A stretch of DNA of 62,183 nt, filler included, from Perkinsus olseni (Eukaryota), in NCBI GenBank assembly GCA_013115125.1. It is 5 parts of 5 records of this genome, joined end to end, with 100 filler letters (N's around TTAATTAATTAA, not from the genome) between each part and the next. Parts side by side here need not be neighbours in the genome. Positions count along the whole stretch, not along the records: positions 1 to 12,429 come from JABANN010000793.1; positions 12,530 to 24,948 come from JABANN010000794.1; positions 25,049 to 37,414 come from JABANN010000795.1; positions 37,515 to 49,800 come from JABANN010000797.1; positions 49,901 to 62,183 come from JABANN010000798.1. One strand, written 5' to 3'. Numbering within the stretch: the stretch's first letter is position 1; each line of letters starts with the position of its first letter. The translations under genes and the position numbers were made by a program. The notes under the pieces are model-generated. The model did not search any database. It saw only the letters and a list, made by a program, of their open reading frames with translations, and was not told the DNA's origin. Positions 557 through 60,213 of this stretch are shown piece after piece.

Positions 557-1814
557 TCACGCGTCGCCATTTTTGTTGTCCAGCTCGTCTTCTCGAACAG
601 CCTCTCGGTTGACGACTTCTTCCGCAAAAGCGTCCATTATTCCTTCGATCAAGCTTCGTTGAAGGGCCTCCCAGATAGGAAGCAGCAAGAATGTCCTGAT
701 GAACACTTCCTTGAGTGTTTCCGCCGGAAACACTCAACGGGAAACTCTCCGGCAAGGTCCAAGATTTCGATCACTTTGCGCTACCGAGCGGACAGTACAG
801 TGAAGGGGTCTTGGCTGGCAAACCCTACTTGGCTTTGAAATAAACGTTGACCGTGACCTTAGTTGACCTGCCCCATCGCTTGAAATTCCAGTCATATATT
901 AGACATTCGCAGTAGCTGAAGGGCTCCGATGCAGCTACCTGACGCGCAGGGATCCACCGAAGAGGAGCGTCAACGGCTGCTTAGACGCGGGTCCCCATCG
1001 ACACTTACAATACTAGCAGCCTTGTCATCAGGCGGCTTCAATGTGACGTTGTACCTGGTATATAACGGTACGAAGACTGTCCATACTATACGGCATGTCT
1101 GAGTGTTACGAGAGGGTGAGAGCAACTGATATTAGAGACTTTGTACGGAAGCAACAGATATTACAGACTTTGTACGGAAGTGTGTCAATACGGGACACTT
1201 TGAGTGCGACCGAAGACGCAACGAGAAACATGTGAAGACCATCGCTTGAGGCGCGTGCACATGATCGCTCGAGTAATAGACGGCAGAACGCTACCTACGT
1301 CACGACATCGCTGATCGTCGGACCACCGTGCTTGATTCCAAATCCGACGTCACATTGAAAACTGTGAGCAGTAGCCTTCGTGTCAAATTTTATCTGGGCC
1401 TTGAAAACGAAGAAAATACTGTGAGTGACTCAGCAATCCCCCAGTGGGGGACCCCCACTACGGAAGAATAGCCCAGGAAGTAGACCGAATGATGCTAAAC
1501 GGAGCTCGGAGAAGAGAGAAGCACATAAATTGTCGGTACCACCTACAGAGGTGCACCACGGCATCCATGTTGGATATCTATCGAAGTCCGCAATGATGTC
1601 ATAACACGTTTCAACGGATGCCGGAGCTAGCCCTGCATGTGAGAACAATTCTTTAGAGAGCCTATAAGGGCAGTAAAGAACGCGGCTACCTTTGACCTGG
1701 AGGCATCGCGCTACATGAGGATGTTCAGCTGCTCTAATAGCGAACTTCCCCTTACCTGAGCAGAGTCATCATTGATATACCCGGACTCACCTCGTCATAA
1801 GCCATGTCTACCAT
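557..1814 (-). CDS. COQ10-like START/polyketide-cyclase domain protein (multi-exon, 5' end approximate)
   Basis: Exon 'VETCYDIIADFDRYPTWMPWCT' matches the COQ10/RatA motif. Last exon reads 'TFLLLPIWEALQRSLIEGIMDAFAEEV...GDA*' with GT-AG introns between. Confidence 0.7.
711..752. other. Putative hAT excision footprint (8-mer GTTTCCGG), aged, inside an intron
   Basis: TTGAGTGTTTCCG-C-CGGAAACACTCAA (13-bp stem, 1-nt centre), then CGGGAAAC+TCTCCGG, each one mismatch from the expected sequence. Confidence 0.6.
1123..1180. repeat. 29-bp imperfect tandem duplication
   Basis: AGCAACTGATATTAGAGACTTTGTACGGA followed by AGCAACAGATATTACAGACTTTGTACGGA. Confidence 0.85.
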
Positions 1815-1990
1815 ATTCCACTTTCTTCAGGTCGTCTTCGTGAAAACTTCCCTCACTCACGGAGCCCTCTGATGAAGCCTGCTGTGCTCGATTACCCAAG
1901 ACCTGCACTATTAGTCTACCCAGACGACAGCAGGCGGAAACGAGAACGATCTTCCTCCCAGTAGTGAGGCTTCACCAGTCGAGCAGCAAG

Positions 1991-4620
1991 TCAAGACGAT
2001 CTCCCTGGTTGGACCTCGCCGATCATTTTATGTTCATTCTGCAGCTCGTAGAGGCGTTCCTGGAGCTCCTTCGTCGGAACTTGGGCTAAAGACTTGTAAT
2101 AGTCCCTAAGCGCACAGAGCCTTCATCCGTCATCCCACGGGAGTGCAACCCACCCTTCGAGCTCCGCTTGAAAGCTCCACAGAGACGAGTCCCTCATGTT
2201 CACAAGTTTCAATGAAAATGCGGTCCCCAGGAGGTCCAGCTCCACCCTGATAAATTGGACACTTCAAATGGACTCCCGCCCATATGCTACTGTCCACCTC
2301 CCAAGCAATTCTTCAACCACTCGGAGCATGAGCCGCAATACGTTGCGATAGATCGCGGATTCTAAAAGGCACCGGCAGGACTCACAAGGCCTCAAGGCTT
2401 GTGTCAAGAATGGCAGGTTGCCGATCGGCCCGCTTCAGTCATTATTGAGACGGGCTGGAACGTGACGTATCCTCGCTGGCCTTTCCGCCAGACAGCTATC
2501 AAGAATGCTGATTGTGATCCAAGCCCTATTAATGCCAGTAAAGGCGCCTCACAACGGTCGCCAGCTTCGACCAGCCGACCCCGCCCACGAGTTCCCTACC
2601 GATGATATCCGGTATCCAAAAGACGTTGATGCTGGCATCAGATAGAAGCTCCTTAACCAGACGGTCAATAACCTCCTCGTTGAGCTTAATATGCGAGGGT
2701 GCCTTCTGGCAGTGGACTTCGGCGATATCCAAAGGAACTACAGAGAGATAGTACTCCACTCCGCGCCAATCCTCAACTGAGCGTCTCTAACAATGGAGTC
2801 GAACTCACTCAGTCTCCACTCTAGGCGGTGCCCCATGACCGACACGTGCAATGAGTTCGAGAGGTCCTCTAGTATCCTGACAATGGTTGGTGGGAAAATC
2901 GTGTGAGCACATGAGAAATATCGTTCGCTACCGGAATATGAGGATAACAGTATTGAGATAGAGGCTACGCTCCACCGCATCGGGTATTAACGGATTGTTA
3001 ACAAACTCGTCACGGAGCATCGAGTCAACTGAAATGACGCCAGAAAGGAGCCGTTCCCCAGAGGGAATCAGGCCGCTTGCATAGATTCATACTCACCAAT
3101 GATGCCGAGCTGGTCTCTCCCATGTATTGATGTCCCGCTGATCTTGAAGTTGATAAAAGGCTCGGACTCTTGTACTGAACGCACCTGCAGGAATCATCTT
3201 CCAAAAAGGGATTGCGGCAGAAGGTTATGAACTATCCTACTTTGACTGCGTGCCCCCACAGCTGAATATTATCGAGGCTGCCCATGGCATTCTCGAAAGC
3301 GAAAGTGACGATGCTAAGGATGTCCAGATATAGCTTCTTCTCGAACTCGTGAGGGACTAGAGGATGCTTCTATAACGAGCCGTGCATTGACAACGTGGGG
3401 ACCGTATTCGCCTTATTGACTCACAGTCAGTTGGCCGCTGGCTAGCAAAGCATCTACGTACTCAGAGAGCCGCTCCTGCCGCTGTTGGGATACGTGCCGG
3501 ATGAACTGTATCAACTTTCTCGGATCCGACTGGCTGAAAGCCTGACAAAATCTTATCAAATGAAGCGCGGTATCGGCGCTCATCGATTCATCCCCATCAT
3601 AGATTCTCAGACTAGGAGAACCTGCGCCAAGTCCAAGGCGGGACAGTCGCAACTTACGGCGCTCGATCCCCCGCCGGCACTTGTCTTCGGTGAGAGTGTA
3701 GAAATTATTCTGTGCTCTATCTGAACAGATACTGCGAATCTCAAAGCGACACGGGTCGATGTGGTAGCCAACCTCTCTATCACGTTTTGCCTGAGGTCCG
3801 AGAACCAAGATGGGTACTTCCATAAGGCTAAGGGACTTGTTCAAGACTTCGACCGAGGACTCCAAGGAGCCTGCGAATCCCGAGCAATGCCATGACTACT
3901 GCAACTGATTCCATAATAAGCATGTCTTACTCTCCGATGTTGCTTTCAGAAAAGTTGCCACTGCGTCAAACAACTCTCGACTCACTTTGACTTGCTCTCG
4001 TATGAGTTCTACACGCTTCTCCCCTGAAAAGCAAGGTCCTTGAAAACCTTTAGGCGAAAGGCGTCCATCGAATACAGTCCAGGGTTTGAGATATTCATCC
4101 ACGACAAGGCTGTCGTCGGATAGTCAATCGCTTCTCTGCTTACCCACCTAGTTGCTCCAACGCTTCCGGGGAAGATAGGTAGTCTTCGAGACGCTAACAG
4201 CAGAAAACGTGAAGTTGATTTCACGGAATACCCATAGTCGATTGAGAGAAAATGGGAGCGGTTGGAAAGCTCGATGAGAAGTTGCACCTTCCGCATGGAG
4301 TCCCCAACATCGTGTACAGCCGCTTGGGCTTCGCGACCCGCTGCTTGAGACAGAATCTGCCAGGTGGCGGCGTGGTGGTGGCCGTCGTGACAGGCGGGAG
4401 TCGCTCCCCAGCGGCAGTTACTTTGCCGACCAGTAATGTCTCATTCATCAGCGATCCGACACCTTCAACAGTCGAAGATATGAGCTTCTCGACTTGGTGA
4501 ACTCCCGGTGGCGGATTCTTCGGATTTCTAAAGTCACCGAGACAAAACTCGAGAGATTCCGCAAGACCACGCCTATCCCACGACACCGGCCAGTTGCGAT
4601 TAGAGACATGCGCAGACACT
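1991..4620 (-). CDS. Hypothetical multi-exon protein with three C-terminal repeats of an uncharacterised domain (5' end uncertain)
   Basis: Spliced exons give 'LVPHEFEKKLYLDIL...LWGHAV', 'LIPDAVERSLYLNTV...VMGHRL' and 'WIPDIIESAIYRNVL...LLGTAF'. Confidence 0.6.
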
Positions 4621-12429: not shown

Positions 12430-12529
12430 NNNNNNNNNNNNNNNNNNNNNNNNNNNNNNNNNNNNNNNNNNNNTTAATTAATTAANNNNNNNNNNNNNNN
12501 NNNNNNNNNNNNNNNNNNNNNNNNNNNNN
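12430..12529. other. Assembly gap with artificial TTAATTAATTAA six-frame stop spacer
   Basis: N run + TTAATTAATTAA + N run. Identical spacers at 24949-25048, 37415-37514 and 49801-49900. Confidence 0.97.
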
Positions 12530-24737: not shown

Positions 24738-25048
24738 CTGTCGAAGTGCTTCTGCATGCAGATATCATTGACCACTTTATCAACTCTGTTGTGGACACAA
24801 GTGGGGCGTTGCGTTTGGTGCCATCACCTTTGGGGGGGGGGGGGGGGGTTGGGTGGGGGCGTGGGGGGGGTGGGGGTGGTGGTGGTGGTGGAAGAAAATA
24901 AAAGGAAAAAAAAAGAGAGCGAGAATAAATGGGGTGGTTTAAAACAAANNNNNNNNNNNNNNNNNNNNNNNNNNNNNNNNNNNNNNNNNNNNTTAATTAA
25001 TTAANNNNNNNNNNNNNNNNNNNNNNNNNNNNNNNNNNNNNNNNNNNN

Positions 25049-25049
25049 G

Positions 25050-32939: not shown

Positions 32940-32961
32940 ATTTGTTTAACAAATTTTGTTA
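32940..32961. other. Putative hAT excision footprint (8-mer ATTTGTTA)
   Basis: ATTTGTT + TAACAAAT + TTTGTTA, exact. Confidence 0.75.
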
Positions 32962-33911
32962 ATTAGTGTTGGAGCGCATCTGATCTGCCCAGTGCGCACC
33001 GCGGACGCACATTCTCTCGTCTTGCAGCGAACTTTGCAGGAAGAACATAAATCTCTGCTCATCGCGATAATCTATCGTCGATAGGTTGTCCGTCTGCGAC
33101 CACTGGCAATCAATCCCAAAGGCAAATGCAGATATCAGATAATACTTGAGCTGCGGCGGCTCAAAAGTCTAGCAGGAGTGCCAACAATAATCCACGAAAG
33201 AATCCACGAAAGAATCATGAAGTAACAGCTCCTTTGATGCATATACACACTAGCCGCGCTCAAGACTCTGGCGCCCGTCAGAAACTGTCTACTTCGCACA
33301 GGCAGGGCCGCACAGTCAACAACGAGAGGTAGGCTACCTCAGGTAGCTAATGATGGTCGAACGGAGCCGATCTACAAGCATCAATGTAGCCATCGAGAGC
33401 TAATAAATCGCAGCTATTGGCTACTGGCCAACAGGGGGCGGACAGATCCTCCTACCACAAGGTGTACGCGTGTCTTTTCCATCATGAAAAGAGGATGCAC
33501 GCATGATAACGAAGCCGGGATCGTAGCGGCTCTCTGCTGTTCACTGGCTTCGTTGCCTCCTGACAACAATCGGGTCTTTGTCATTCAGAGCGAGGCATCT
33601 TCCGAACTTCGCGCCTTGATCGGAGTTTTAGCCTGAGAAGTCATCGTGATGATCGGATTGAGTCGGGCTCGTAGGAGACAGCTGCGTCTCTCCCTGCGCC
33701 ACGATCGATTACTATGTAGCTAGATGACTGCTGCACCGTGGGACCCCACGGCAGGACTAGTGCGGCATGTCTCTTTGACAGCCAGGAGTGAACTGCGTGA
33801 TGGACCATGGAATCTGGTTATGACAGTAGCCACTGGCTAGCCCTCTCACTCCAGGCATCTCTTGTCAAACCACGTACGGTCCTTCAGTAAGTCTAGTTGA
33901 AACGCTTCTGA

Positions 33912-34643: not shown

Positions 34644-34654
34644 GTTGTAGTTGA

Positions 34655-34699
34655 ATGGTTGACTGAGTCAACCATGAAAGAGTCAACTTGACTCTTTCA
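34655..34699. other. Putative hAT excision footprint with two long inverted extensions (8-mer GTTGACTC)
   Basis: ATGGTTGACT-G-AGTCAACCAT overlapping TGAAAGAGTCAA-C-TTGACTCTTTCA; both perfect stems with a 1-nt centre. Confidence 0.78.
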
Positions 34700-34914: not shown

Positions 34915-34936
34915 CTCACTAGTAGTGAGTCACTAC
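34915..34936. other. Putative hAT excision footprint (8-mer CTCACTAC)
   Basis: CTCACTA + GTAGTGAG + TCACTAC, exact. Confidence 0.78.
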
Positions 34937-40000: not shown

Positions 40001-40913
40001 AATGAATGTGCAGCCGTGGATGGGGTTGGTCTTGAGGATGATCAAGAAGTGCCACTGGGTGACGCCATACATGTGGACGCCAATGACTTGAAGCGCCATC
40101 AAGATCAATCTATGTTAGCCAGAGCCATTATTGGGTTTCTTGGCGGAATACAGAGCGACAAGCAGTCATTGCCAAGGAGCTTACTCGAACGCGAAGCTCC
40201 ACTGTATTCTCTGCAAGAAGGGATACTCTACCGTGCAACTTATGATTCTGCTAAAGTTGCTCTATTTCCATCTGAGGACCCTTCCTTTGTTGATAAACTG
40301 ATCGATGCTGTGCATGAGAGGCTAGGCCATGCAGGTCCGTCAAAGTTGGTACAGGTCTTCACTAGCAGGTATTATGCTCCTAAACTGGCTACACTGGTCA
40401 GGAAGAGGCTGAAGACCTGTGACTGCTGTCAACGAATTAATGCGAGGAGACAACACCAGAAAACGTGGAGCAGGGTTACAATGAGAGGCATGAAGCCATT
40501 CCAAGTTTTTGGATTGGACCATATGATCATGATAGACGGCAGGGACGAGACTGATGGTCGCACTGCCCCATATAAAGCAATTCTAACTTTGACATGTGGT
40601 GTGTCATCCTTTACTATATGTCGAGCTGTGAAGACTTGTACTGTTAAGGAGACGATTAGCTAGTTATCACTGGTATTTTCGGATATTGGCTATCCTACCT
40701 GTTTAGTGGTGGATGGTTATGGCCAGAACAGCCCGTGGACAAGCTCTACACAAACTCGACAGCTTAAACAATGGGCTGCGAGATACGGAATCTATGTAGC
40801 GGTACTGCCACCACATGGACAAGGATATCAGGGATGGTTTGAGCGCCCTCATCAGAAAATAAGACGTATTCTACAGGCTAATGCTGTCTGTGGAGAGGAC
40901 ACAGCGTCATGGC

Positions 40914-40969
40914 CATCTCAATTACCTAATAGGTAATGGAGATGAATCATAGGTAATACCTATGATTCA
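40914..40969. other. Putative hAT excision footprint (8-mer TTACCTAT) frameshifting the integrase
   Basis: TTACCTA + ATAGGTAA-TGGAGATG-AATC-ATAGGTAA + TACCTAT. Collapsing to one 8-mer restores 'WPSQLPMIQLSINSLPY'. Confidence 0.8.
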
Positions 40970-45743: not shown

Positions 45744-47014
45744 TTCGAAAGAGCGGTCGCAGTTGAACTGAGTTATAGTAGTCGTGTAGTTGTTCCTGCG
45801 TTCCCGAAGTTGTATTAGTATAATAGCAAGGCGAAGTACACTTCATCAGCTTACATTCATCACTCAGCCTAAGTGACGCGGTATATCAATGAAGGCGAGG
45901 CTGCCTTTTTCATCGATCGATCGAGTTTGGTTCAGTGGTTGTAATATGCGACTCTATGTCAATGCATGCCTAGTCTTCGGGATCGTGGTGTTCCATGCCG
46001 GTCATTGTTCTCATCAGAATAAATTGTGAGGAGCTGAGACGGGGATTTTTTGAAGATGGAGTATGGGACGGATTCTGAAGTCGGGGGCATCTTCCTGAAT
46101 GGCACACCAGCTGGACGCGACGATACTCGTGTCCTGCCGAGTGTCAGATCTTGCCAATTCTCGTCGCTCTGACTATAGGCCTCAATCTTCCGAGTTGGAG
46201 AAGTCCGAGTCTGTAATAAAAACAATGCAACACGTGAAAATGAGGCGACTACGCCACATGCAGGAATAAGGCCACTATGAAACTTTCAGAAATGAGGCTA
46301 TCGTCGCGCGTGGCGTATGAACAGTTTCAACTCAGAAACATCAGAGTTAGAAAATAAGTCATTTTCCACAAGAAGATGGGCGGCAGCCGGCGACATTCGT
46401 TCATGAGTGCTTCAATCACACCGCGCCACTTTGCATAGTGCTCTCATTCATGCGTGTTACATTTATTTAGCTTCAGACTGCATAAGCAAGTACGGAGCTC
46501 CGGTGAAAGTTTTCGTGCACATCAGACCTCAAAGATGGTCATACGCTCTCTTTATAATCCTGGTCAGTATCTTGTTGTGAGGAAATGTCTCCACCTCCCA
46601 GCTCAATCCAACTCAATAATGTGTGGATTATGGAAGACAATATCAACCCGAGGAAGTGACGCTAAGTTACGACGTACACTTGTCACTACGCCTAACACTG
46701 AGATCACTTGAGTAGGCTATATTTCATGAAAACGATGATAATGCTGTCTGCCGAAGCAGTTAAACCTCATATACGGATTAAAGGCGACCATTTGAGGGTC
46801 AAAATTGCACGAAACCGCGAGTGGATCAGAGAAGTAGAAGTATACCGGTAATCGCTTTCGTAGAATGGCGAGCTCACTGGCATGGTCTGACTGTGACAGC
46901 GGTCAGCCGATGTTCTGGGTCAACACGAAGCTCCGTCACTTTCCCGGCAACTAACGAGCCTCGAATAGTTGTACTGGCTGGACCCCACAACTTGAAGCTG
47001 ACATCCCAATGGCA

Positions 47015-47031
47015 GGGCCAACTTGGCCAAG
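47015..47031. other. Putative hAT excision footprint (8-mer GGGCCAAG), in-frame +9 nt
   Basis: GGGCCAA + CTT + GGCCAAG; gives 'AWPSWPC' where 'AWPC' is expected. Confidence 0.6.
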
Positions 47032-49023
47032 CAGGGAATAGCAAGATGCCCTCGTTTTCGTCATCCATTGGTTGTAGTAGCATGTAGGTCAAGGCATTGT
47101 TCATGACGGCATACTGATCGGCCCAGGGTGGATAATCCTGTAAATGGGGAGCGAAGACAGAGAATCGATAGCCCTTAGCCGATGGATACTTGGCCCGGGA
47201 CACCACCATGGACTGGGCTTCTTTTGCCAAACCAAGGAGAACGGCGTCCATCACGTTCTGGTTCCATCCCTCGTCCGAAGTAAAACGACGTTCGCTGAAG
47301 GTAATCCTTCCCATAGATAGGAGTTCTTCAGACGACTTACTCGTGATGTAACGGTAAGGGTGAACAGCATAAAGGTCAGCGTTCTCGACATTAGTAGGGG
47401 TAGGCGTACAGACCTCGCAGGGAGCCAACTTAGTTCCGCCATTTTTACTTTTGGTTGTGGGAACGGTTGGTAGAATGGATAGGAGCTTCTTCCATCTAGC
47501 CCGTTGCTCCGGTTGAGTGATATCAGAAGGCAGTTTGACGAGTCGTGTAACAACAGCCAATAGACCAGAGATGGTGGGATGGTCATTCATAGAACAGTTA
47601 GTACCAGCGACCATGTCCTTGTAACCAGGACATTGCCAGGTTTCGATAGACTGTGTTGGGAAGAGCACCATCTTGCCGCGAGAGTCCCTATGAGTTCTCC
47701 ATTGGGAGAAGAAATTGACGACGGCATCCATCAAGGGTAGGTTGGCCTTCATAACTTCGATATCCTTAGTCTAAGCGTAATGGTCCAACATGAGAAGGCT
47801 GAGATCTAGCGCACCTTGTTGGAGGTTGTAGTGATTCCATCGGTCCTCGGCGTAGTACCAAATCGGCGGGTCTGACCTGCCCGCTCGTCCACAGCCATAA
47901 TAACTCTGTGGATGTGTGGTACCGATCAATGGGTGCACGTACTCATCCCGGAAGGCAACTGGGCCCTTCATGTCCGGGTAGTACAGAGTCGTCTTTGCCA
48001 CGGCGCCGGTCAGAGTGTTCATATACGATTCGAATAAAGTCTGCTGCATCGAGAAATCCCCAGCCACAAGCATGTTGTAGTACGGTAAACGCACATTTTG
48101 CCACCAATTCAAGCCTCCCCACTGACGGAAGTCGGGATCCTCCCGTTGTGCAGTGAAGAGCATACCATTGAACTTGAGCGGGAGTGGTTGTCGAGTTTGA
48201 GTGGCCTGAATGTAACGGTGGAGGGCATATTTCTCATTCACCAGCGGAGCGTTCGGACCGGAGATGTTAATCCAACTCTTACTCCAGAAGCCTCTCCACC
48301 AAGCCACATGACGTTCCCATGCCGGTCCCACCGCGTAGGTATTCAAAATAGCTTCAGCATCCGCGATGGCCTCCGACACAGATCCCTCTTCTATCGTGAC
48401 AACAGAGATAAAGCTCGTGAAGGTGTGGCGATGAACGGGCGCCTTGGTTCGGACAACTCCCTCCGACACCCCGCTAACCGGCTCAGAGAATCTCCAAATG
48501 GCAACGGTAGACCTGTCTTTCAGCCTATCCATGAAACTGCTGGCCGCTGAAATCAGGTTCAACTGTTTCAAAGTCTGATCCACGAAGTTGGTGCCGTTGT
48601 TCCAGTGTGCCCACCCGATAATCCCATCATTGGCGTGAGACACATAGAAATCCGCGCTTATGTCGTAGGTGACACAGTCGAAATCTGGTTTCTTCTTTGA
48701 CGGGGATGGTCGCGGAAGTTCTGCTGTGGCAGTGGCGCTCACTTTAGTTGGGGAGCTGATGTTCACGACCAGGATGTCGTGGTTGGCATCGACGTACGCA
48801 ACGATCCGGATAGGAGGGTCTCCAATATCGATCAAGACAGTGTCGGTGCTGGCGTTCAGCACCTACACACAATTACAAGAATTAGGCAGTGAATTCGTAA
48901 GGGCCGCTTCCTGCCAGGAAGGCTATGACTCACCTGCTTGAAGGGTGTCGAGGCTCCTGAAGTCCACGGACTTGGCGAAATATTAAAAGTGACCTTCCCG
49001 ACTTTCATGAGCTCGCCGGCTTC

Positions 49024-49045
49024 GTTCCAACTTGGAACTTCCAAG
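49024..49045. other. Putative hAT excision footprint (8-mer GTTCCAAG), +14 nt frameshift
   Basis: GTTCCAA + CTTGGAAC + TTCCAAG, exact. Collapsing it restores 'DQRAWNEAGELMKVG'. Confidence 0.82.
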
Positions 49046-50399
49046 CCCGCTGATCGGATATGAGAAGTCCCATGATGGGATCCTGCTCGTTCTTGTTATC
49101 AACAAAGACATTTGCAGCTAAGCCACCGTTGCCGATTGGAATCGAGTTGACGTAGGTGGTAGCATCCTTCTCTGGAGAAAGATCCGTCCAAGTCACGAGA
49201 GGGGGCTCGTAGGAGCAACCCGTCCTGACGGCGAGAAAGCCGAGCAGAAGGGCCAGACACAAGGGCATTTTAATAAAATGTATACTATGGCGCTTTGTTA
49301 TCGGCATCTTCGTGAATTGTTGTAAACGAATCTTGTCTATTCGACCAGTATTAACAGATATCGAACGAGTCTGAATCGAGTGGGGTACACGGTACACCGT
49401 CGCTAGAACGGACCTACCAGGAATCTCATAACTCGAAGCGCCGAAGATTGTCACGTGGCTCAGTTGACTCTAACGCAAGAGTGAAGAAGCAACTGTGTAG
49501 GCAGCATAGCTAAAGGCTAAGCAGCGCAACCATAGATACAATACTAAGGATACCATTCTCATTCCTCAGCATTATCACACATAAGGAAGCATCAGATCAG
49601 CAATACTCAGTACCTCAAACACTTAGGAATGAGCCTTTCACAGCTCTGTATACTGTAACAAGATCCCAGTCACTCATCTTGTGTCTGCGTACACAGTAGC
49701 ACGCGAGCGCACACGGGAAAATACGTTCGTAAAATCCCAAAGAATACGGGAGTGCGGGAAGGAAAACACCAAACCTGAAACCCGAGCATTGCTCGGCGAG
49801 NNNNNNNNNNNNNNNNNNNNNNNNNNNNNNNNNNNNNNNNNNNNTTAATTAATTAANNNNNNNNNNNNNNNNNNNNNNNNNNNNNNNNNNNNNNNNNNNN
49901 ACATTTAAAGTGATGCCCTTCAATGGCTTTTTCTCTCGGGGCACTTTGAATTTTGGTACCACCGTGCGAGCGTCAGCCCATTCCCTGCTATAGCTGCGTG
50001 TCCCCGCGAATGCATCACTCTGCGGCCATCGGAACCCTTCCGTCGACCTGAGCGGTTCTTCAGTCTACGAGCGTTCAGATACGGGCGTCTATGCGTTCGT
50101 CGGCAGTCGAGACGGCGATATATTTCATCTCCTACTAGATGGTCGCGGGCTCACGTGTCTCGGACGAGTGAGTATTCGTCCAGACTTTCCGATCTTGTAT
50201 TAGCTGTTCCTGTAGAACCCTGAGTTACATTTTGTTTCTCTATGGCCTCTTTTTCCCTTTCGCATTGGGCGTAGAGTATCATAGTTGTTCGAAGGAACAA
50301 CATCATATATACTGGCAGTACATTTAGAAGGAATCGAGCAGTATTATATGTTGTAGAGAACGGCTTTTGTCCTGCTACCGTATGAGAACAACTTGGTCA

Positions 50400-52130
50400 T
50401 GAGGAGAGCAACAGCCCTAGTGTATTTCCCGTTTTGATACAGGTGCAAGGTGGGCCGTCGGGTTGCTCTACGCGCCTGGCTCAAATTGAGACCCGGGATG
50501 GCGATGACGTTCCCATTGCTCTCTTCAAGAACTCATCTCTAGCAGTCTTATGCGAATACAGCACAAAAGTTGCCACCGAAAATTCAAGTGCGTCAGAAGG
50601 TAAACCATCTTCTGGCTTGATGGTTGCGCAGGAAAAAATACGGAATTTTGAGAAATTGTTGAGGATAATCTTCCTCAATATAATTTCCCAGGATAATCTG
50701 ATTGGGCTTCATTCCGTCATTTTCCTTCTATGAGGTCCGGGGTGCCTCGCAGGTGGAGAGAAGAAGCCTGAAGAAGTTGGATTCTCCGTACACCCAGTCC
50801 CCTTGGGGTTGGCGCCGCTCTTGGTCGGAGAGATAGGGCCTAACGGCAGAGTCGCCGTTGTTGCCACTACGGCGTTGCCTGACGGACGGCCGCATATCGT
50901 TATTGGTAAAACTGTTCGTTCTCGGAGGGCGCTCGTTGATGCTCTTTGATAGGTAACATCGATGATGATATCATGCCGTGTGCTACGTTCAACTACGTAA
51001 GAATTTTTTTTGGTGGGGTCGAAATCATGTGATTCTTGAGCCTTTTTTATGAATAAGGAATATCTCACCAGATTGAAGCCTTCAGAAACATATTCCCGCT
51101 AGGGAGACCTTCGTTTACAACTAGCCCGTTTTCTCTTCGATTTTGTGCTTGGAGGTTGAAAAGCTGAAAAGGAAGTTAATGAGACCTTCCGGTGAACGGT
51201 GCATGATGGGTATAAATGATACACTTTTTTCTGTGGTAATCGCAGGCGAAAAGGTCACCATTTCACTGTGAAATGGTGACCTTTTTTCCTGCGAGTTCGG
51301 GTGAACTTTCACATCTCGTGGTCACTGGGGGATGATATGATTCCCGCAATTCGCCACTACCTGACTTTGCGCTTCCGGTGTCCGCCTTGCGCCTCGTCGG
51401 AATAAGCTTTTCCCTTCTTTCCAGACGATGCCGTATTATTGCCGTACACTAGAAGTTGTTGATAAGAACACTGCTTTCTCCATCTGCCGCCTGCCCAGCA
51501 CCGGCCGCTGGGCAGTTACTCAGATTTCGATCAAACCTGAAAGCATTGGCCCGGCAGGTGAGCTCTGCTTTGATTCAAGTTCTCTCAGAGTGATACCGTT
51601 GAACGGAGTGGCTCGAACATGGCGAATGCCCGTCCGATTAGCCCGTTCTTGATGGGAGACTCATACGACTAGCCTGATCTCAGCAAATCTTAACGACCCG
51701 GCGGGCTATCCAGTGAATATCCGTCAATGGCTTCCCTTCGCTCCGGGCGACATTGGAAATGGGACCCATCGCGAAGTTCCGATATGTATCGCAATATGCA
51801 GTTTGAGACTGCCAGACTCGATGGCCGTGGTTGCCGTTGGTGAGTCCTCCCGACTCGCGAGCCCCTCGATGACCGGTACTTCTACGGTAGAAGGTCTACC
51901 CTCTTTGTTGTAGCCTGGTCTTCGATGTTCATTTTCCTCCCAACTCGTGATTTGGGCGCTGCTATGTTTTCGGTGAACTTAGGCACATGCTACGAGCCTT
52001 TGGAAGCTCTTGGGGTAAAGAATTCGGCAAGGGCGTCGGCTGAAGATGGAATCGACATCGATCATGATGACGGTGAACATCCCACGGGGCCTCGCCAGTC
52101 ACGGGTGGCTGCTTCTCGTGGTTGACCATC
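50400..52130 (-). pseudogene. Possible decayed coding sequence of unknown family
   Basis: Consecutive minus-strand ORF fragments (50481-50678, 50709-51068, 51121-51312) with protein-like composition, interrupted by stops. Confidence 0.3.
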
Positions 52131-52317
52131 ATGGATTATTGAATCACGATTTTACTTCTCCTTACGTAGTGAGTTCTTTTTCGCTTTAAAAACTCAATCA
52201 GATACATCAGAGTAATCGAGCTTCTTTTCGTTCTCAGGCAAGACTACTGGAGGTCGGTTACTGCTACTAGATTCTGGGTCGTTGAAAATAATGTGCAATA
52301 TGAGTAAGATCGGATAT

Positions 52318-52339
52318 CTTCATTCAATGAAGTTCATTG
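52318..52339. other. Putative hAT excision footprint (8-mer CTTCATTG)
   Basis: CTTCATT + CAATGAAG + TTCATTG, exact. Confidence 0.78.
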
Positions 52340-54023
52340 ACCTTCGTAGGTATTCCATTCACTCCGGTGGATAACATTTGCTGTGTTACGGAGAATTTGA
52401 TCGCTTTCTCGAGCCATCAACGGATTGTAGCGATATGGGAGGAGAGACTGTTACGCTAAGGCTACCCGTGTAGTTCCTACTTTCCCCTCGGAAGGAGACT
52501 TCACGTAGCGGGGATGTTCGAATAAACTTCGTGACGGTGTGCAAGATGGACAGGGAATGGGGTCACGCATTTACACGACTCTCGCCGATCCCCGGGGAAT
52601 CCTGGAGCTTATGTGAGGAAAAGAGGGACAACCGTGCTGGCAGCTCTCATCTCGGGACAGTTCCAATGAACAAGCCCTACCGAAAGGACTTGGCTGAGCC
52701 GGAAGCGTTGTTCCTCGGGAGCAGCACTCACGACGGCCTGTTGGTGTTGGCTCTCTTCGAGGACTGCTTGAGACCGATGTATGTTTAACAGTATTTCTTT
52801 GCTACCCTCAAATGAGAGAATCTCATGCTAAGCGAGATCAACGGGAATGAGGCTCCCTTACTGTAGATATGTCCAGTCGTCGGCAAGATGTTTGACGGCA
52901 GTGAGATGCCTACCTGGAGGGAACGGAATATTATTCACCGATAGAGATGGTGAGTTGGCTTCGAGCTGCGCACTACGCGTGGTCCTAATGTGAAATGACT
53001 GCTCATTCCAAAAGCTATGCAAAGCTTGCGCACCACGGAACGATTTCCCCGCAAGTTCGTTGTCATTCAATACCCTACCGTTTGCGGTCATCGGGCCACT
53101 CCTGAAGAGCTTGTTTATGATGCGGAAGCGAGCTCAATCAGTTGAAAAAGTGCCCAATGAGAAGCGCGAGGTCATTGAATGTCCGCACTTTGGTATAACA
53201 GATGCTGCTTTGTGAAGGACTCATCTTAATCTATCTGTTGGCGATTCATGTGGAAAAGTTCATTCATATTTGGTGGATTAGCCTTTGGTGGTTGACGGCT
53301 GATAACCGTCGACTGTTTGTTTGGCTACTATTAGGGAAGGCCACTGGGCTACCCTCTGGATGGCGGCAAGCCGCGGTCGAGCGCGGTTCGGGAGTGAATT
53401 TGGCCTCCATTGGTCGGGCCTGAGCGAAGCCGATTACTTCTGACCGTTGGCCAGGACCAAAATTGGCGCGAAATTCAAGACTGAGGGAGAACGGTCGGTT
53501 ATCATTCTTATGAACCAGTCGACGGCATTCCTCGAGACTTCGAGCATGATTCCTCTTAGAAGCCTTGGGTTGCGCAATGCGGGCGCGATAATCCTGCTCC
53601 GAGAGGACCTTTCCGGGAGCCAGGGGTCATTATCACCATTTTGCTTATATTCGGCATAGGCGACGGACACTCGACAACAAAACAGAGCAAATAATGGCTG
53701 CAGATGAAAAATTTGTGGTCCCTTGAACAATGTCCACTGCACACACTCGTGCAGGAGCGCGCCTTGCGCGCTAGCGGATCCGAGTCTCGGATTCCCAGAG
53801 ACTTCGAGTGGGCGTCGGATGGAACCGAACATTCGCGAGCACTTCAGGTTGCTGATAGTTACCGACGCCTACTCTCAATTGCGATCAAACGCTCATCACT
53901 CGGAGCGCGTGCCTTTGGACCTACGGTCATGAGTTCGAGCGTCACGCAAGGCGCATAATTTTCTCGAGCTTCTTCGTGGGAGGCGCCTGGGGCTCGTCTT
54001 CGCTGTTGGTCTGTAGAACATGT

Positions 54024-54096
54024 GCCTCGGTAGCTCAGTCGGTAGAGCGCGTGCCTTTTAAGCCCGTGGTCGTGGGTTCGAGCCCCGCCCGAGGTG
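54024..54096 (+). tRNA. tRNA-Lys(TTT), one anticodon-stem mismatch
   Basis: GCCTCGG/CCGAGGT acceptor, GCTC-AGTCGGTA-GAGC D arm, CTTTTAA loop, TTCGAGC T-loop. Stem CGTGC/GCCCG has a T-C mismatch. Confidence 0.88.
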
Positions 54097-55478
54097 TACG
54101 GGTCGTTTAAGCTTGCGGTAGAGAGGCAGAAGTAATTATGGGTTGATGATCAATGGATACTCCCTCCGGGTCTCCTGTTGTGCCGCTCTTGCCCCCCGAC
54201 GACGGCTCATTTGCGCAGCGTGAGAAACTCATTGGTTGAAGACCTCACAGATATACTACAGGCTTGCAACTCTGAGAGGAGCCTGTTTTCAAATAGAGCA
54301 CATTGGGACCCCGTTGTCCCAATGTGGCCTTGGCCTATGATCTGCCTCCACCTCGAAGGGAAGGTTATCAACTCGCCTAAGAAGAGCTGTACTGAGTTGC
54401 TCTGACTGGTAATCGAATACCTTTCCATACCATCCAGAGTGGATGGTAGCTCCATACTTTCGAATACCTTACCGAATACGGATGAATCGGACGTGAAGGA
54501 TCCGGGTGTAAAACATCGGGCAGTCGGGAGATGGCGGCAGAATTCCGGGCTTTAATGCAGCACAAACGATAGATCTCACATAGCCCACTTTGGCAATCGA
54601 GGGAATTTCACTAAGATGGAGACTCCCAGTGGAGAGCATGTCGAACATCCCGCAACATACAACAAGTAAATGGCTATTCTCGTGTGGGCGTTGACTGAAA
54701 GACGCGTGGCGGCGGAAGCTCAGACAAGGCTCCGTCTTTTTTGGGTGCCAGACGCAAATTTTGGTCTCAAGTATTCGACTTCAGGTTGACGTTGGTCGAA
54801 CATATGCGAGCGTATTCAGGTTACGTTGGTGTACTCGGCAATAGCTTCCTACCCAGTAACGAGCAGGTTGACACCTTGCTATGTGAGATGGTTTCTACCA
54901 ACGTTGGGGAAGTGCTCACTGATGCCGTGGTCGTGGGAAATGCGGGTGGTGTTGGTAAACTTGGGACTTTTCCTACATCCATCGTTGCCCGCTTCCTCTT
55001 TCATCCTCAGGGTTCGAGTTGCTACTGCCAAGCATGTCGGGTTCGTTACGGAGGTTGTGTTTGAGGCGGAAGTTCGTGTCAACGAAGGCTATCGACGGAT
55101 TGAGGAAAGTCTCATTAGGGGGTAAAATGATCGTCATGAATTGGTGTGAGCGGGTGTTGGCCGACTAAAGTTATCTTGTTCAGGCGCGCGTGAGGTGTGC
55201 CGTCGCCTCTGCATTCTCCACGAGGAAGTTGCGCACCCCAGTATCATCAGAAGTTATAATTCTGTAAGACCCCCTCCCGTGGTCCTGGAGATCCGGCTGC
55301 TTCCATGACGATGGCGGAGTGACCTCTCCACCTTCTAGCTAACGGTGCATGTGGCTACGAGGTTGTTTGCAGTTGATTCCTGGGCGGCCTCTACCACAAG
55401 CCGTACTGGATGGCCTTGTAGTTCAACGTATGCATGAGTAAGGCAAGGATTCAGAGTTCTTTTGCGCCTTCTATGATG

Positions 55479-55500
55479 CTGAGACAGTCTCAGTGAAACT
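55479..55500. other. Putative hAT excision footprint (8-mer CTGAGACT)
   Basis: CTGAGAC + AGTCTCAG + TGAAACT (one mismatch). Confidence 0.7.
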
Positions 55501-57702
55501 TGCAATTCCTGATACTACCTTGCATTTTCTTGGGATTGGCCCTACCGTGTTACTACGCCCGTCTTTTTGCTACTGTAGTAGCCACAGCGCATTTCCAATG
55601 TGGCTTTGATCGAAGCTCGGTGAGCCCGCGTTGTGACTGGTGAGAGGTAACCACCGTGGACGCGCACGGTGCCGTTCGTCCGCTACAAATCTGTCTCACT
55701 CCACCTTGTTGTGCTTGCCGGTATATGAATCGAGCAGGGCAGTTTCTGGCGTCACTGCATAGCACCATTGAAGTTGCATGCTCGAGGGTTGGCTGGGACA
55801 CTCTCGGTGTGATGCTTGACTAAGAGCTGATAGCAAGCTGACCCCTGAGCTCCTGGAATTCTGGATTTTTGAGGTTGCTCGGCAGGCTATGGTCCGCTTT
55901 TCGCTGAATGTGTCCTAGTCCTCGAGTCGCGGGTCTTGAGGAATCTCTGTGATTGCTCGCCTCAATCTACGTTCTTCGTCTCCGTCTGCCGGGTCTCGCT
56001 CGTGGAGCACTTCTCGGTCATTGGTCGTAGGTTACACACCGAGGATGAGAGTGATTTCTACGCCTGCTTTGACCAAGAGATGACACGGAAGGAAGTCGAC
56101 ACATGCATGAAGCCGTTGTTTGACTCGTGACGCTATTGCTATGTGCCGTGTTGTCGAAGTACTAGTACCAGACCTGGGGTGTGAGAAGATTCGAATTTTA
56201 GCGTCGCGGTCAGTATTGTGATCGCTCAGGTTAGCACTTAATCTGATTACGCCAGTTCTCCGCGCTAAACTTTGAACTCACGCAGACGCAAGTTGAGGCG
56301 TCTAGCCGATGCGGTCTGGCGTGAAAGAAGCTTTAGAGGGGCCTTTGTGAACAACTGCACGAAATGTGTATTCTTCGGTAGCAACTTGCTGGTCATTGCC
56401 GATGCTGGTGAGTCACGGTGTTTCTGATTCGTTCCAATTCGGTTTCACGCTTCTCGTTCGAAGGAAGATTATGAACGAAATTCTTTTGAAACCGCCTGGC
56501 CGTTTCGTCGACGCTAGTGCGGCCTTTGATCGAAGACAGTTCTCTATCGTTTTGTTCCGATTAGAGCAAACCAGAACATGTCACCAGACTGACTGCCCCG
56601 TTTCGATTTTCAGGGTTATTGGTGTGCAGTTCCAGCAAATGAGTTTCACATTATACTCTGCATTTACCGCTCTGCTCCAGCCGACTATAGCTCCCAATTG
56701 GATAGACACTGTACACGGCCCTGTATACCCGGGGAAGTTTTTCCGCGAGAGTAAGTCAGCCAGATGTTCCTCTTTGATGAGTTCCTGCTAGGACTTTCGA
56801 CGGCAGCTCGTTTGGACCCTCTGTGTGCTTCTTTCAGTATATGCGGAGTTCAAGGCTTCGTTGAAAGACTTCGACTGGGACGTATATGCCAACGGTAGAG
56901 GCCACCTCGTGGAGCCTGGGAAGTTTAAATGTTTCGGAAAGTGGAGAGACGCTGTAGTTTACGGTGCGAGGAAGCAGGAGATCAAAGAGTAGGTTACACT
57001 GTAACCTGTCTTCTCTCCAGGGTCGGCAGCTTGGCCCAGTAGCCCGCGGTGCCGGTAGGGGGCCCGATGAGAAAGATCGTACGCTTTCAGGTTGTGTGTC
57101 CGTTTGCACGAGAAGCAGCAAGATGACTGGGAGTACAAGGACTCTCCGGCGGATTACAGTAAGATCTTTTTCTCCACAGTGCTCAATTTCATCCGGGTAT
57201 TTCAGATTGCATTCTCGATCCGAACGATGACGGAAACGATTACGGGCGGAAAAACCGCGATTGGTTGTAGGTTACGCTAACCTTGAGGCGTTGCTGGATC
57301 ATCCGTTTGATTGTCTTCCTCCCACAGATGCTACGAGAAGACACGCAAGTGGGTCTTGTTGCCCCCCCATGGCCCCTCCCTAGACCCAGACTGTCCTGTT
57401 GAAGACCTGGAGTTTTATGCTCCTCGATGTACGACAGGATCTTCGCTTCACCTAGCAATTGTATCTGCCGAGTGCTGCTCATGATGTTTCTGCAAGTCCA
57501 CGTTCTTTTTAGGGTACCCCTACCAAAGTCCACCGCCCTGGTGTACCTACAGTTGGTCTGTCAAGTATCAAACTTGTTATTGCCATCCTGAGCTTGATAG
57601 ATGGTCTCCATACGACACGTCTTTGAGAGTGAGGTAGAACACAGCCTCACCGGAATGTTCTCACAAATTGTCGTTATAGTTTGAGTCCTCACGAGTGACA
57701 CT

Positions 57703-58977
57703 ATGCTATTCCCGTTCCTCAGGGCCTGTCCGCCGGACAAGTCCGTATTTATTGCCCCACGTCAAGTGCCTCTTAAAGAGTGGATGAAGTTGAAGTATCC
57801 GACTAATACTACGTCAACCCCCACCACAGCCAACGCAACAATCACAACTACCGCAACGACAACAATCACAACAACCACAACCACCACGACTACTACAACT
57901 ACGACTATTACTGCCACCACGATGGCGTCCTCTACCTCAACTGATACGGCACCCGATGAGACTTCCACGTGGGTATCGACCAGTACTGCAGTAGCCGTTC
58001 CGCCCACAACACCTACCGCCTTGGTTACGTCTGCTGCTGCAACACCGGCTGGCACGTCGACCACCAGGACTTCCACCAAATGCTTATGTCCATCTCCCTC
58101 AGCGACAGCGTCTGCTTTAAGGACATCATCGCCCGCTACGACTGCCGAAACGACTCCGGCTCTTGTCACAACGGCTGACTCTGTCACGCCCAGCAGCGCT
58201 ATCACCACTACGAGCGCTGGTAGCTCTGAATCAACCTATGGCGGTGTTAGTCCCATTGACGACACACCGGCATTAGAAGAGGATGGAGATCCCAGAGTTG
58301 GAGCTTCAACGGTTGCTCCCAGTAATCGTTGTAGTAGGTTTGGTCGGATCCTGCTGAATTTGCTTCTCAGGTATCAGCGCTTGTGGTGAGCACGGTGCTT
58401 GGTCCTCTGTTGAGCAGTTGTGCGTGTGCCATGACGGTTGGAAAACCGTCGGCTCCGAGTAGGGTCGCTGATAGGGGCATCGGTCGATGTGTGTTGTTCC
58501 TCAGTCCTTGCGGTGCCCTCATATCGTCGATTCTTGGAGGGGATGGTGGGATGGTAAGCACTGCTGCTGTTCGACATATCCATTCATTCTGACTCGAGGC
58601 TTCTACATCAGGGAGAGATGGCCTCTAGCGACAACGACTCGAGCGGGAACGGATGGTTTCTTATCGCAATCATTCTAGTGGTGATTATCATCGGAGTTGC
58701 ATGTTTCTTCCTGTGAGTGAGGGGCGCTCTCCTCGGGTCACCCTGTCATAGGTGGTTTTGAACCCTGGCCATTCCCGCTCCACATGGTATTGCAGCCCTA
58801 CCTTCTTCATTTTTCAGGCGGCGTTTCTACCACACCCGCGGTTTCTACGCGCCCACGTTGCGTCGATCATCGCACACGAAGTCACAGAACATTAGAGACT
58901 GGCGTCTGTCTGAGATTACTATCCCGCCACGACCTGACTGGTCGCGAAGTGCACGCCCTAGGCCAATGGTCGTTTAA
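57703..58977 (+). CDS. 3' part of a type I membrane protein with a Thr-rich mucin-like stalk (upstream exons probably in 54700-57700, unresolved)
   Basis: Poly-Thr/Ser/Ala/Pro exon; later exon 'GWFLIAIILVVIIIGVACFFL' followed by a basic tail 'RRFYHTR...MVV*'. Confidence 0.62.
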
Positions 58978-60191
58978 TTGACGCTTGGGCTCTATAATGC
59001 AGTGCAAGAACTTCGTAGTGATTAAACTCACTATACTATAATCGGTATTACATTGGTAATCAAATGAGACCCGGTCGGAGGTTCCGGGCGAGTTCCCTCT
59101 CAGCTGAGTTCACGTCGGCAAGGTGGTGATACCAAAGTATGAAGTAATCTTCATTACTTATCTCAAGCTTCAAAGAGATTAGTTGCGTCGATAGTCAGTA
59201 AACTCCCTGGGACGCGGTCAGCAGGTTCCTGAGCTCTCACGATGCCTCTGCTGAGAATATGAAATGCAAACCCCGCGCTGAAAGTGCGTCCCACCCAACA
59301 CTCGCAACTAAACTCGCCCACCCTTGCCAGAAATGTAGCCTGCGGCTCCAAATTGGTACTGTCGTGGCCTCACCACCGACACACCCAATTTGGACAAGTA
59401 ACTTCCCCCCTACAAAGAAGAGAAAGAAAAAAAAATGATGGGCTCAGGGCAACTGAGAGACTATTAATCGACAATGGTACGCTTTAACGGGGCTCCACCA
59501 ATCGAAAGGACTCGCGACGACACTGTGGGGAAGTCAGAGCTAGTGCCTGGGGCGCGCGCTCTCATCGCTGGATTTGCACCACTCTACACTTTGTGTAGCG
59601 CTACAAACAACCTTGTAGTCAAGTTGTTGTTAGCGAAGAGAATTGCAGCGATAGTAAAAACACACAGGACGAGAGTGTGTGCGTGCGCAAGCTTTGTGAC
59701 ATCATGAGACCGCACAGCGAAGAAACGCCGTCGGTGTTCATGAGTTCATAGACATGGTGTTACAAAGTGAGTGGCGAAATACGCAGCACAGTGGCGCTCA
59801 CGCTCTCAGATTTTTTTTAACTCCTGGTCAAATGTGTGGTGCATTGAGTACTCTGTGCTTGTGGCAAGGGCCGGTCATCGAGATCCTCTTCACGGCTCAG
59901 CAATGAGCTGCGAGGCTTGGTCACGTTATACTTGAGGCAAGGGCCATATCTGGTGAGAAGCTACTCCCAGCTCAGAGATGGTTTTGAACGCCATCAACAC
60001 CTTGGTAACGTGCCACGAAGCGCAGTGGGTCGCCACCGGTGCTGCGAAGACCATTACCAGTGTCACATCTTCGTAGAGAGCCGCTCGTTGCGACTCAGCA
60101 ATGGACAGTGAGCGAATCAATCATCGTCGACTAAGCTTCGAACATTAGCTAATCATGTTACCCGTCGACTCTGTTTGGCCTTGCGGACCTG

Positions 60192-60213
60192 CATACTTCA
60201 AGTATGATACTTG
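60192..60213. other. Putative hAT excision footprint (8-mer CATACTTG)
   Basis: CATACTT + CAAGTATG + ATACTTG, exact. Confidence 0.72.

Follow-up and report, generated by a model that had tools for sequence, protein, structure and literature searches.

The window, that is the whole stretch of 62,183 nt that was analysed, consists of five contigs of approximately 12.4 kb from the clam parasite Perkinsus olseni, joined end to end. Palindromic scars are a real feature of this DNA, with about 16 small examples in 61.7 kb of the window: 11 separate 22-letter scars, four longer forms and one truncated form (Table 1). The 22-nt product thus dominates and has the form X(1-7)+revcomp(X)+X(2-8), in which 8 letters determine the remaining 14. 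X is different at every site, and no conserved motif was found. Most scars are located outside recognisable coding sequence. Scar 32940 sits 168 nt downstream of a subtilase ORF that ends at 32772, a retrotransposon integrase ORF lies directly upstream of scar 40914, and scars 711 and 1437 both fall within predicted introns of one large minus-strand gene (tblastn of P0147/P0148). Clustering of the scars is mild (six gaps of less than 800 nt, p=0.027) and compatible with local hopping. Rfam and ARAGORN searches of the window returned four tRNAs and nothing else.

Table 1. Scars and the interrupted gene in the P. olseni window, with the target word (X) of each scar.
Feature	Position	Strand	Target word or basis
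Uncollapsed scar	711..752	.	inferred X=GTTTCCGG
Exact 22-nt scar	1437..1458	.	X=TCCCCCAC
Exact 22-nt scar	32940..32961	.	X=ATTTGTTA
Exact 22-nt scar	33326..33347	.	X=GAGGTAGC
Uncollapsed scar	34655..34699	.	X=GTTGACTC
Exact 22-nt scar	34915..34936	.	X=CTCACTAC
Uncollapsed scar	40914..40969	.	X=TTACCTAT
DUF5703/GH95-like gene, broken by scar 49024	46874..49270	-	protein comparison
Possible truncated scar	47015..47031	.	X=GGGCCAAG
Exact 22-nt scar	49024..49045	.	X=GTTCCAAG (CTTGGAAC on minus strand)
Long uncollapsed scar	51240..51313	.	inferred X=ATTTCACA
22-nt scar, 2 mismatches	51798..51819	.	X=GCAGTCTC
22-nt scar, 1 mismatch	51879..51900	.	X=CTTCTACC
Exact 22-nt scar	52318..52339	.	X=CTTCATTG
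22-nt scar, 1 mismatch	53778..53799	.	X=ATCCGAGA
22-nt scar, 1 mismatch	55479..55500	.	X=CTGAGACT
Exact 22-nt scar	60192..60213	.	X=CATACTTG

An initial sequence-only reading had named ten of these places, and all ten are as it described them: 32940, 34915, 49024, 52318 and 60192 exact, 55479 with one mismatch, 711, 34655 and 40914 longer, and 47015 truncated. Its list was incomplete, having missed the exact scars 1437 and 33326, the one-mismatch scars 51879 and 53778, scar 51798 with two mismatches and the long form at 51240-51313. The density of about one scar per 6 kb that it gave is an undercount for this window.

When the same geometry was searched with words of k letters, exact matches numbered 259 at k=3, 14 at k=4, 2 at k=5, none at k=6 and k=7, 7 at k=8 and none at k=9-13, and the anticipated enrichment peak at k=8 is therefore sharp. 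Allowing 0, 1, 2 and 3 mismatches at k=8 gave 7, 3, 2 and 12 matches, as compared to 0, 0, 6 and 61 summed over 10 order-2 Markov shuffles (means of 0, 0 and 0.6 for 0, 1 and 2 mismatches). Of the five further matches with 1-2 mismatches, the one at 34680 (2 mismatches) is part of the long form 34655, which leaves the 11 separate scars counted above. With up to 2 mismatches no matches were obtained at k=9 or k=10 and k=7 was at background (7 versus 27 in 5 shuffles), while k=6 with one mismatch was mildly high (8 versus 10 in 5 shuffles). A scan for the 6-nt core alone (Y n revcomp(Y) n Y) returned the same seven places as the exact k=8 scan. Rather than being broad, the length distribution is fixed at 8.

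Palindromes with arms of at least 7 letters and a 1-letter centre were found 28 times versus 3.3 expected, whereas centres of 0, 2 and 4 letters gave 2, 3 and 5 versus 2.7, 4.75 and 3.85. Among palindromes the excess is limited to the 1-letter centre, and even centres are at background. Five leftover palindromes with a 1-nt centre (18490, 48907, 49266, 49782 and 56991; about 3.3 expected) are either chance occurrences or unclassified. Short footprints, with 0-2 palindromic letters per side, showed no enrichment in the window (p,q=1,1 gives 1 versus 1.1). The truncated form was matched once versus 0.4 expected, making 47015 the weakest of the scars; it fits a left hairpin and an unextended right flank, joined via GGCC.

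In 7 of the 7 exact scars the letters at both centres complement the outer letters, which excludes models having the original base as centre. The longer forms are informative in this respect. In scar 34655 the left opened hairpin has 10-nt arms with centre g, the right has 12-nt arms with centre c, and the two overlap by 1 nt at the joint. In scar 40914 the arms measure 15 nt (1 mismatch) in the left palindrome and 13 nt in the right, and the overlap is 2 nt. Each of these two scars comprises adjacent palindromes that share one 8-mer as their inner arm, shifted by a single base, and the complement rule holds at both centres. They would thus display two opened hairpins lying side by side, each on the same 8-mer. 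Scar 711 consists of a 27-nt palindrome (711-737, 1-nt centre) followed by one of 15 nt (738-752, 2 mismatches). In scar 51240 the palindrome arms are 27 nt in length, 93% complementary with 18 nt exact, around centre t; a degenerate second palindrome follows, with X(2-8) at its end (51307-51313).

Transposon-independent templated insertion at breaks or forks, by polymerase-theta snap-back or short template switching, does generate short inverted copies of neighbouring sequence, and a literature exists on stem-loop extension by polymerase theta. However, snap-back would retain the original terminal base instead of its complement, the scar length shows no spread, and scars 34655 and 40914 would need two ends with the same 8-mer and hence a pre-existing duplication. 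We regard this origin as very unlikely.

Scar 49024 is located inside exon 1 of a DUF5703/GH95-like gene, where its additional 14 letters cause a frameshift. An unbroken ...DQRAWNEAGEL... runs through a single X in the related Perkinsus proteins P0122 (another P. olseni record), P0123 and P0124 (P. marinus), while at the scar the window changes frame and holds 14 additional letters. As judged by this comparison of proteins, the scar is an insertion relative to the relatives, and the orthologues give empty-site evidence. The collapse to a single 8-mer in orthologues that the sequence-only reading had foreseen holds here, at the sole scar comparable with orthologues. The database model P0121 evades the frameshift by omitting a stretch equal to 31 residues in P0122 (NEAGEL...FKQ). 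When all 12 k=8 matches with 0-2 mismatches were collapsed by script, a convincing restored ORF was obtained at 49024 only. Scar 1437 was considered as a second coding test, the ORF at 1430-1765 on the minus strand seeming to be interrupted; yet 1437 and 711 are in introns, as placed by the deposited model and a P. chesapeaki relative, and these sites offer no empty-site test; a representative search gave nothing further on this point.

Short draft contigs are strung together by linkers in the window, and palindromes can mislead assemblers. A sequencing or assembly artefact nevertheless has next to no credibility as a source of the scars. Independently assembled contigs from two studies (runs X1 and X6) carry six scars of the fifth contig with 0 differences at full local depth (57-92), and these six are therefore not assembler artefacts. 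Among the indel rows listed for the independent contigs none is a 14-letter gap. The distorted gene model deposited for its contig is consistent with scar 49024, and the pattern follows a biochemical rule, not a k-mer rule. The palindromes proposed at the outset are in this way borne out by independent contigs from public runs. A further run, X7, shows many differences from the window. Its bridging contig over 60192 is short of the window by only 3 letters in total, so that the 14 extra letters are apparently present there too. The X7 contigs over 51411-52450 and 54170-55570 are short by 17 and 25 letters and could be without a scar, and 118 nt at 51220-51339, spanning the long scar 51240, are skipped and marked 'between: not known'. 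The stretch at 59263-59605, which the window contains and X7 skips, was considered as a candidate element indel, and no clear TIR or TSD was seen by eye.

Another explanation considered was that the scars are functional hairpin motifs, or very short non-canonical introns that carry direct and inverted repeats, as introner elements do in Amoebophrya. In that genus, a related lineage, 11-30% of non-canonical introns are described with 8-20-nt inverted and 3-5-nt direct repeats and without family-specific motifs (PMC7789003). Against such an origin, X differs at every site and most scars are non-coding as far as can be recognised; the introns seen in presumed-RNA contigs (run X9, covering about 56.6-59.2 kb and a few other pieces, with the scars all outside) are GT..AG and 46-102 nt in length. 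We hold this explanation to be extremely improbable.

We interpret the scars as footprints left at donor sites by a DNA transposon of the cut-and-paste type, which makes 8-bp target site duplications (TSDs) and leaves hairpins on the flanks, with the hAT superfamily fitting best, and put the probability of this reading at roughly 80%. Nicking by hAT elements occurs one base into the flank. Insertion of the putative element would duplicate the 8-mer X. At excision the transposase would nick one base inside each flank, and the freed 3'-OH would attack the opposite strand, giving each flank end a hairpin whose tip would be the complement of the duplication's outermost base. The hairpin ends would then read ...x1-x7, c8, c7-c1... 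on the left and ...c8-c2, c1, x2-x8... on the right. If host enzymes opened these hairpins 8 nt or more away from the tip, revcomp(X) would be present on both ends, which could anneal over this 8-nt homology and, once the flaps were trimmed, yield the 22-nt product, 14 letters beyond the original single X. Joining without the 8-nt annealing would instead leave a double palindrome. The double palindromes at 34655 and 40914 directly support the earlier proposal that the ends would be joined through revcomp(TSD) microhomology.

Several observations argue for hAT. The scar unit has a length of 8 letters and no other, and it is present as a single copy in orthologues at 49024. The complement centres of the exact scars are the signature of hairpins one base inside an 8-bp TSD, as for Ac/Ds, and the palindromes are centred on the complement of the element-adjacent flank base according to the rule described in PMC5873905. 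The one-base nick would be backed indirectly by this same description of Ac/Ds footprints. The 16 target words, five of them reconstructed from imperfect scars, carry T at position 2 in 16/32 when symmetrised (p=0.001 in a binomial test against 0.236), and 15/32 have T at position 3. For Hermes an 8-bp TSD and an nTnnnnAn target preference have been described (PMC10368747), with which the bias in this small and partly reconstructed set of words appears to agree. A recount from the printed sequences also confirmed the initial tally for positions 2 and 7, where 12 of 20 letters fit nTnnnnAn.

As previously stated for the window, 69 ORF queries yielded no transposase from any family of DNA transposons (11 plus 58 of 84 stop-to-stop ORFs with 110 aa or more, shorter remnants escaping such a search; the 26 ORFs omitted touch N linkers, had already been scanned or overlap large ORFs). 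A hAT transposase, marked by a BED finger, a DDE domain with an insertion domain and a hAT dimerisation domain, was accordingly absent from these queries. Neither an element with an exact 8-bp direct repeat and TIR (at least 11 of 14 matches) nor a filled site was seen in the 62-kb window. The hAT reading is drawn from scar shape and is the most likely one, and the agent could be a non-hAT transposon with flank hairpins and 8-bp duplications, such as a Mutator-like element. MULE TSDs are 8-10 bp, typically 9, and Muta1, with TSDs of 8 or 9 bp, makes hairpins on flanking DNA (PMC5499845); the ORF queries brought up no hAT gene. However, TSDs of mixed length should leave some matches at k=9 and k=10, where there are none even with 2 mismatches, and the nTnnnnAn-like bias would fit hAT. 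More than 90% of Muta1 excisions in yeast are described as precise, and its flank hairpin product is reported as 43+43 nt (PMC5499845). A Mutator-like agent is accordingly unlikely. The sequence-only reading as a whole is supported, every test run that might have refuted it having come out in its favour.

In yeast, Arabidopsis and Candida, Ac/Ds leaves palindromic insertions centred on the complement of the element-adjacent base, with arms of up to 20 nt in yeast and microhomology at the joint (PMC5873905), and the Perkinsus scars share the complement-centred insertions and would share the microhomology. Ac/Ds footprints are, however, heterogeneous and mostly short, whereas Perkinsus has one stereotyped 22-nt product and no enrichment of short forms; a joint through an inverted copy of the whole TSD is absent from the described Ac/Ds footprints that were compared. 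The repair outcome in Perkinsus therefore differs from that in the hosts described for Ac/Ds excision, plants typically having 0-2 palindromic letters per side. With Hermes, which forms hairpins on flanking DNA (PMC5499845), the scars share the 8-bp unit and may share the nTnnnnAn preference and the flank hairpins; no Hermes-like protein or element was found in the window, and the link is drawn from scar shape. Muta1 and MULEs are alike in their flank hairpins and long TSDs, and differ in mostly precise excision and variable TSD length, where Perkinsus is strictly 8.

P nucleotides in V(D)J recombination are palindromic additions that arise when hairpin-capped flanks are opened off-centre. Zero-offset hairpins of RAG and Transib give even palindromes without an odd centre base, and the TSD of Transib is 5 bp. 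The scars resemble RAG/Transib coding joints in their palindromic additions, which would likewise come from flank hairpins, and RAG, Transib and hAT have been grouped together (PMC5499845). A Transib/RAG-type agent was rejected, with only 2 matches and no excess at k=5, zero-centre palindromes at 2 versus 2.7 and even-centred palindromes at background in the window. In the literature consulted, neither scars of this kind nor hAT elements were reported from Perkinsus; Perkinsus hAT families may be named in the Repbase lists underlying PMC3706591.

Usual excision footprints are too short and varied to be recognised without a filled allele, and excision history is mostly invisible as a result. 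With 14 of its 22 letters determined by the remaining 8, the Perkinsus scar is self-identifying. Excisions in different Perkinsus genomes and strains could be counted and dated with a simple scan, which could also map landing sites (introns and intergenic DNA, rarely exons) and would inform on hairpin-end processing in a little-studied relative of dinoflagellates. Annotation is affected as well, with at least one deposited gene model bending around a scar. Extrapolating from about one scar per 3.9 kb, on the assumption that the window is typical, gives on the order of 10^4 scars per genome, the 87-Mb size used being that of the P. marinus assembly (Table 1 of PMC7789003). We tentatively raise the possibility, on which we would not insist, that Perkinsus repairs transposase-made hairpins unusually, by opening them far from the tip or resecting them and then annealing, instead of by tip-proximal opening and classical end joining, such that nearly every excision of elements with 8-bp TSDs leaves the same 22-nt scar. 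If this were true, tens of thousands of excisions would be recorded in the genome in a form that can be read and dated, with local-hopping trails (for example 51240-55479) and frameshifts that some gene copies tolerate as part of the record.

Scanning the window for X(1..k-1)+revcomp(X)+X(2..k), where X is the target word and k its length, gave 259, 14, 2, 0, 0, 7 and 0 exact matches for k = 3 to 9 and none for k up to 13. The seven exact k = 8 scars, each of 22 nt, lie at 1437, 32940, 33326, 34915, 49024, 52318 and 60192. An earlier reading made from the sequence only had listed five exact 22-nt copies, all of which are real, although the count was incomplete. Allowing one mismatch at k = 8 adds 51879, 53778 and 55479, and allowing two adds 51798 and 34680, the latter belonging to the long form at 34655; ten order-2 Markov shuffles gave totals of 0, 0 and 6 for zero, one and two mismatches. 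The enrichment at k = 8 that had been proposed as a check is thus present, with seven exact matches at that length against none at k = 6, 7 or 9–13 and none in the shuffles. With up to two mismatches no match was found in the window at k = 9 or k = 10, and k = 7 stayed at background level; k = 6 was mildly raised at one mismatch (8, against 10 summed over five shuffles). A looser scan, which asked for a 6-nt core in forward, inverted and forward orientation with single free letters between the copies, returned the identical seven places and none other, and in 7/7 both free centre letters complement the letters flanking the whole structure. Because of this, the scar unit is truly eight letters long and the centre rule is not imposed by the search pattern. 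With N letters left out, the window's 61.7 kb holds about 16 scars, 11 of them the full 22-nt product, and the density first estimated, about one scar per 6 kb, was too low.

Palindromes that have a 1-letter centre and arms of 7 nt or more number 28 in the window versus 3.3 expected, whereas those with centres of 0, 2 and 4 letters number 2, 3 and 5 versus 2.7, 4.75 and 3.85. An excess at 3- and 5-letter centres is the 1-letter-centre set recounted with shorter arms. Five palindromes with a 1-letter centre have arms of at least 10 nt, versus 0.05 expected. Two adjacent palindromes on one 8-mer make up the long form, of which 34655-34699 is the first example. Here the first left arm ends in GTTGACT and the second right arm begins with TTGACTC; these two strings are one 8-mer read with a one-base offset, and each centre complements the missing end base. 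The structures at 711-752 and 51240-51313 also fit the long form if their second palindromes are allowed a few mismatches, and 47015, the weakest member, fits a one-sided version. In the long forms two opened hairpins stand next to each other, and the 22-nt form is the two merged over the shared revcomp(X). [quoted passage not shown] Five more palindromes with 1-nt centres and 7–8-nt arms, lacking a third copy, are located at 18490, 48907, 49266, 49782 and 56991, those at 48907 and 56991 falling in introns. About three such are expected by chance; some of the five could be one-sided footprints.

Hermes biochemistry places the first nick of hAT elements one base inside the flank. Hermes is described as duplicating 8 bp of target and preferring nTnnnnAn (PMC10368747), and hairpins are formed on flanking DNA during cutting by hAT, Transib, RAG and Muta1 (PMC5499845). 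Ac/Ds footprints carry palindromic insertions whose centre complements the base adjoining the element; in yeast their arms are up to 20 nt long (at least 3 nt in 47%), and microhomology is usual at the joint (PMC5873905). The scars conform to this centre rule and to the length of 8 bp. Target words in the window lean towards T at positions 2 and 3 and A at 6 and 7 (position 2: 16/32, p = 0.001), in a sample of 16 words, five of them reconstructed from imperfect scars. Unlike the footprints described in PMC5873905, one product dominates here (11/~16), and footprints with 0–2 palindromic letters per side are at background level in the window. We propose that hairpin opening or end resection would occur 8 nt or more from the tip; the sole sizeable homology between the two ends would then be the inverted copy of the duplication, which would yield one dominant 22-nt product.

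No match to DNA-transposase families was obtained among 69 ORF queries from the window, in agreement with the sequence-only reading, and no TIR-plus-TSD element was found in it. The sole mobile-element proteins are the reverse transcriptase and integrase of a BEL/Pao-like retroelement; scar 40914 lies just past its integrase ORF. From the scars alone, we infer that the source element probably belongs to hAT. It is possible that a MULE with strict 8-bp duplications left them instead, but the lack of scars at k = 9 or k = 10 and the mostly precise excision of Muta1 speak against such an element.

The scar at 49024 was the sole one allowing comparison with relatives. The reading ...DQRAW-N-EAGEL... 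is unbroken in P0122, from another P. olseni record whose locus tags carry a different prefix (87% identical), and in P0123 from P. marinus, and is DQRSWNEAGEF in P0124, a P. marinus paralogue. At that identity, P0122 may come from a separate isolate or a diverged haplotype, or may be a paralogue. Within the window the tblastn frame change falls exactly at the scar, and the AWNEAGEL reading is continuous once the 8-mer is reduced to a single copy. Because the relatives are unbroken and the frameshift sits exactly at the scar, the ancestral state was one X, the window carrying 14 derived letters; the expected collapse to a single 8-mer in orthologues therefore holds here. The protein deposited for this contig, P0121, reads ...AWKFQV followed by LNAST and drops a stretch of 31 residues in P0122 (NEAGEL...FKQ) that both P. 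marinus proteins retain as well, its gene model being bent around a scar-caused frameshift. Scars 711 and 1437 are in predicted introns of one large gene, and no convincing ORF spans the remaining scars.

Public sequencing runs assembled as Logan contigs were compared with contig 5 only. Runs X1 and X6 belong to two studies, and X6 carries no flag as a potential source of the assembly. Over 49945-54052, 54069-59293 and 59771-62141 their contigs show 0 differing letters at ordinary local depth, and the matching stretches take in the long form at 51240 as well as each of the six 22-nt scars on contig 5, so that independent runs support the palindromes there. A further run, X7, gives contigs with many differences from the window. 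The one bridging 60192 lacks only three letters overall, and the 14 extra letters at that scar are therefore apparently also in X7. Those over 51411-52450 and 54170-55570 are shorter than the window by 17 and 25 letters and might be without a scar. This pattern, together with the uninterrupted P0122, suggests that scar events were spread over time. X7 also skips 341 nt at 59263-59605 and 118 nt at 51220-51339, and the window's own Logan contigs fragment from 59293 to 59771, a stretch over which depth is 8- to 20-fold higher. The two skipped segments are a repeat family or polymorphic insertion; no clear TIR or TSD was seen at either. Scar placement is uneven: gene-dense contig 2 has none (chance 0.027), contig 5 has seven, and six inter-scar gaps are below 800 nt (p = 0.027). 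Such a pattern would be explicable by selection against exonic scars and equally by local reinsertion.

Features of the window by position
Feature	Position	Strand	Remarks
Two tRNA-Val(TAC)	85-159, 254-328		169 nt apart
Linkers	12430-12529, 24949-25048, 37415-37514, 49801-49900		44 N + TTAATTAATTAA + 44 N; stop in all six frames
Kinesin ORF, 609 aa	17378-19207	minus	identity 100% P. olseni protein, 75% P. marinus, 70% P. chesapeaki
tRNA-Glu(TTC)	29897-29969		
Long form	34655-34699		10-nt arms, centre g, then 12-nt arms, centre c; one letter common at junction
BEL/Pao-like LTR retroelement	37516-40663		starts at contig edge; two long ORFs with reverse transcriptase, Pao-type peptidase and integrase zinc-finger matches
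Long form	40914-40969		8-mer TTACCTAT; same decoding as 34655-34699; 2-nt junction overlap
99-N gap	41724		single
DUF5703/GH95-like gene	46874-49270	minus	scar 49024 in exon 1
tRNA-Lys(TTT)	54023-54097		

The window is made of five contigs of about 12.4 kb in descending length (12,429, 12,419, 12,366 and 12,286 nt, the final piece being cut by the window end), with a G+C content of 52%. From the linker structure and piece sizes, these are unlinked samples, sorted by length, from one P. olseni draft assembly, and distances across joins are meaningless. Read depth over the tRNA-Lys region is 20–40x the local level in every run, and the gene therefore belongs to a high-copy family; tRNA genes are reported as targets of P. 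marinus Dada transposons (PMC3706591). A segment of about 40–66 nt at 62112-62178 has a depth 9–19x local and is flanked on either side by divergence in many contigs from all four runs. It is a short sequence present in high copy number, and the window end truncates it. At 56750-58505, seven GT..AG stretches of 46–102 nt are skipped by contigs of a putative RNA run, which shows that the contig-5 gene there has ordinary small spliceosomal introns. Period-7 direct repeats (375-390 and elsewhere; the p = q = 0 pattern) number 148 versus 15.3 by shuffle, about 10x; judging by the first matches listed, we regard them as microsatellite-like arrays of 7-nt units that have no relation to the scars.

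Within the literature covered by the search, neither scars of this kind nor hAT elements were reported for Perkinsus, and a TSD, inverted-TSD, TSD product was not described. The excision chemistry is already known; what appears to be new is the stereotyped scar that identifies itself, together with how densely it occurs in a perkinsid genome.
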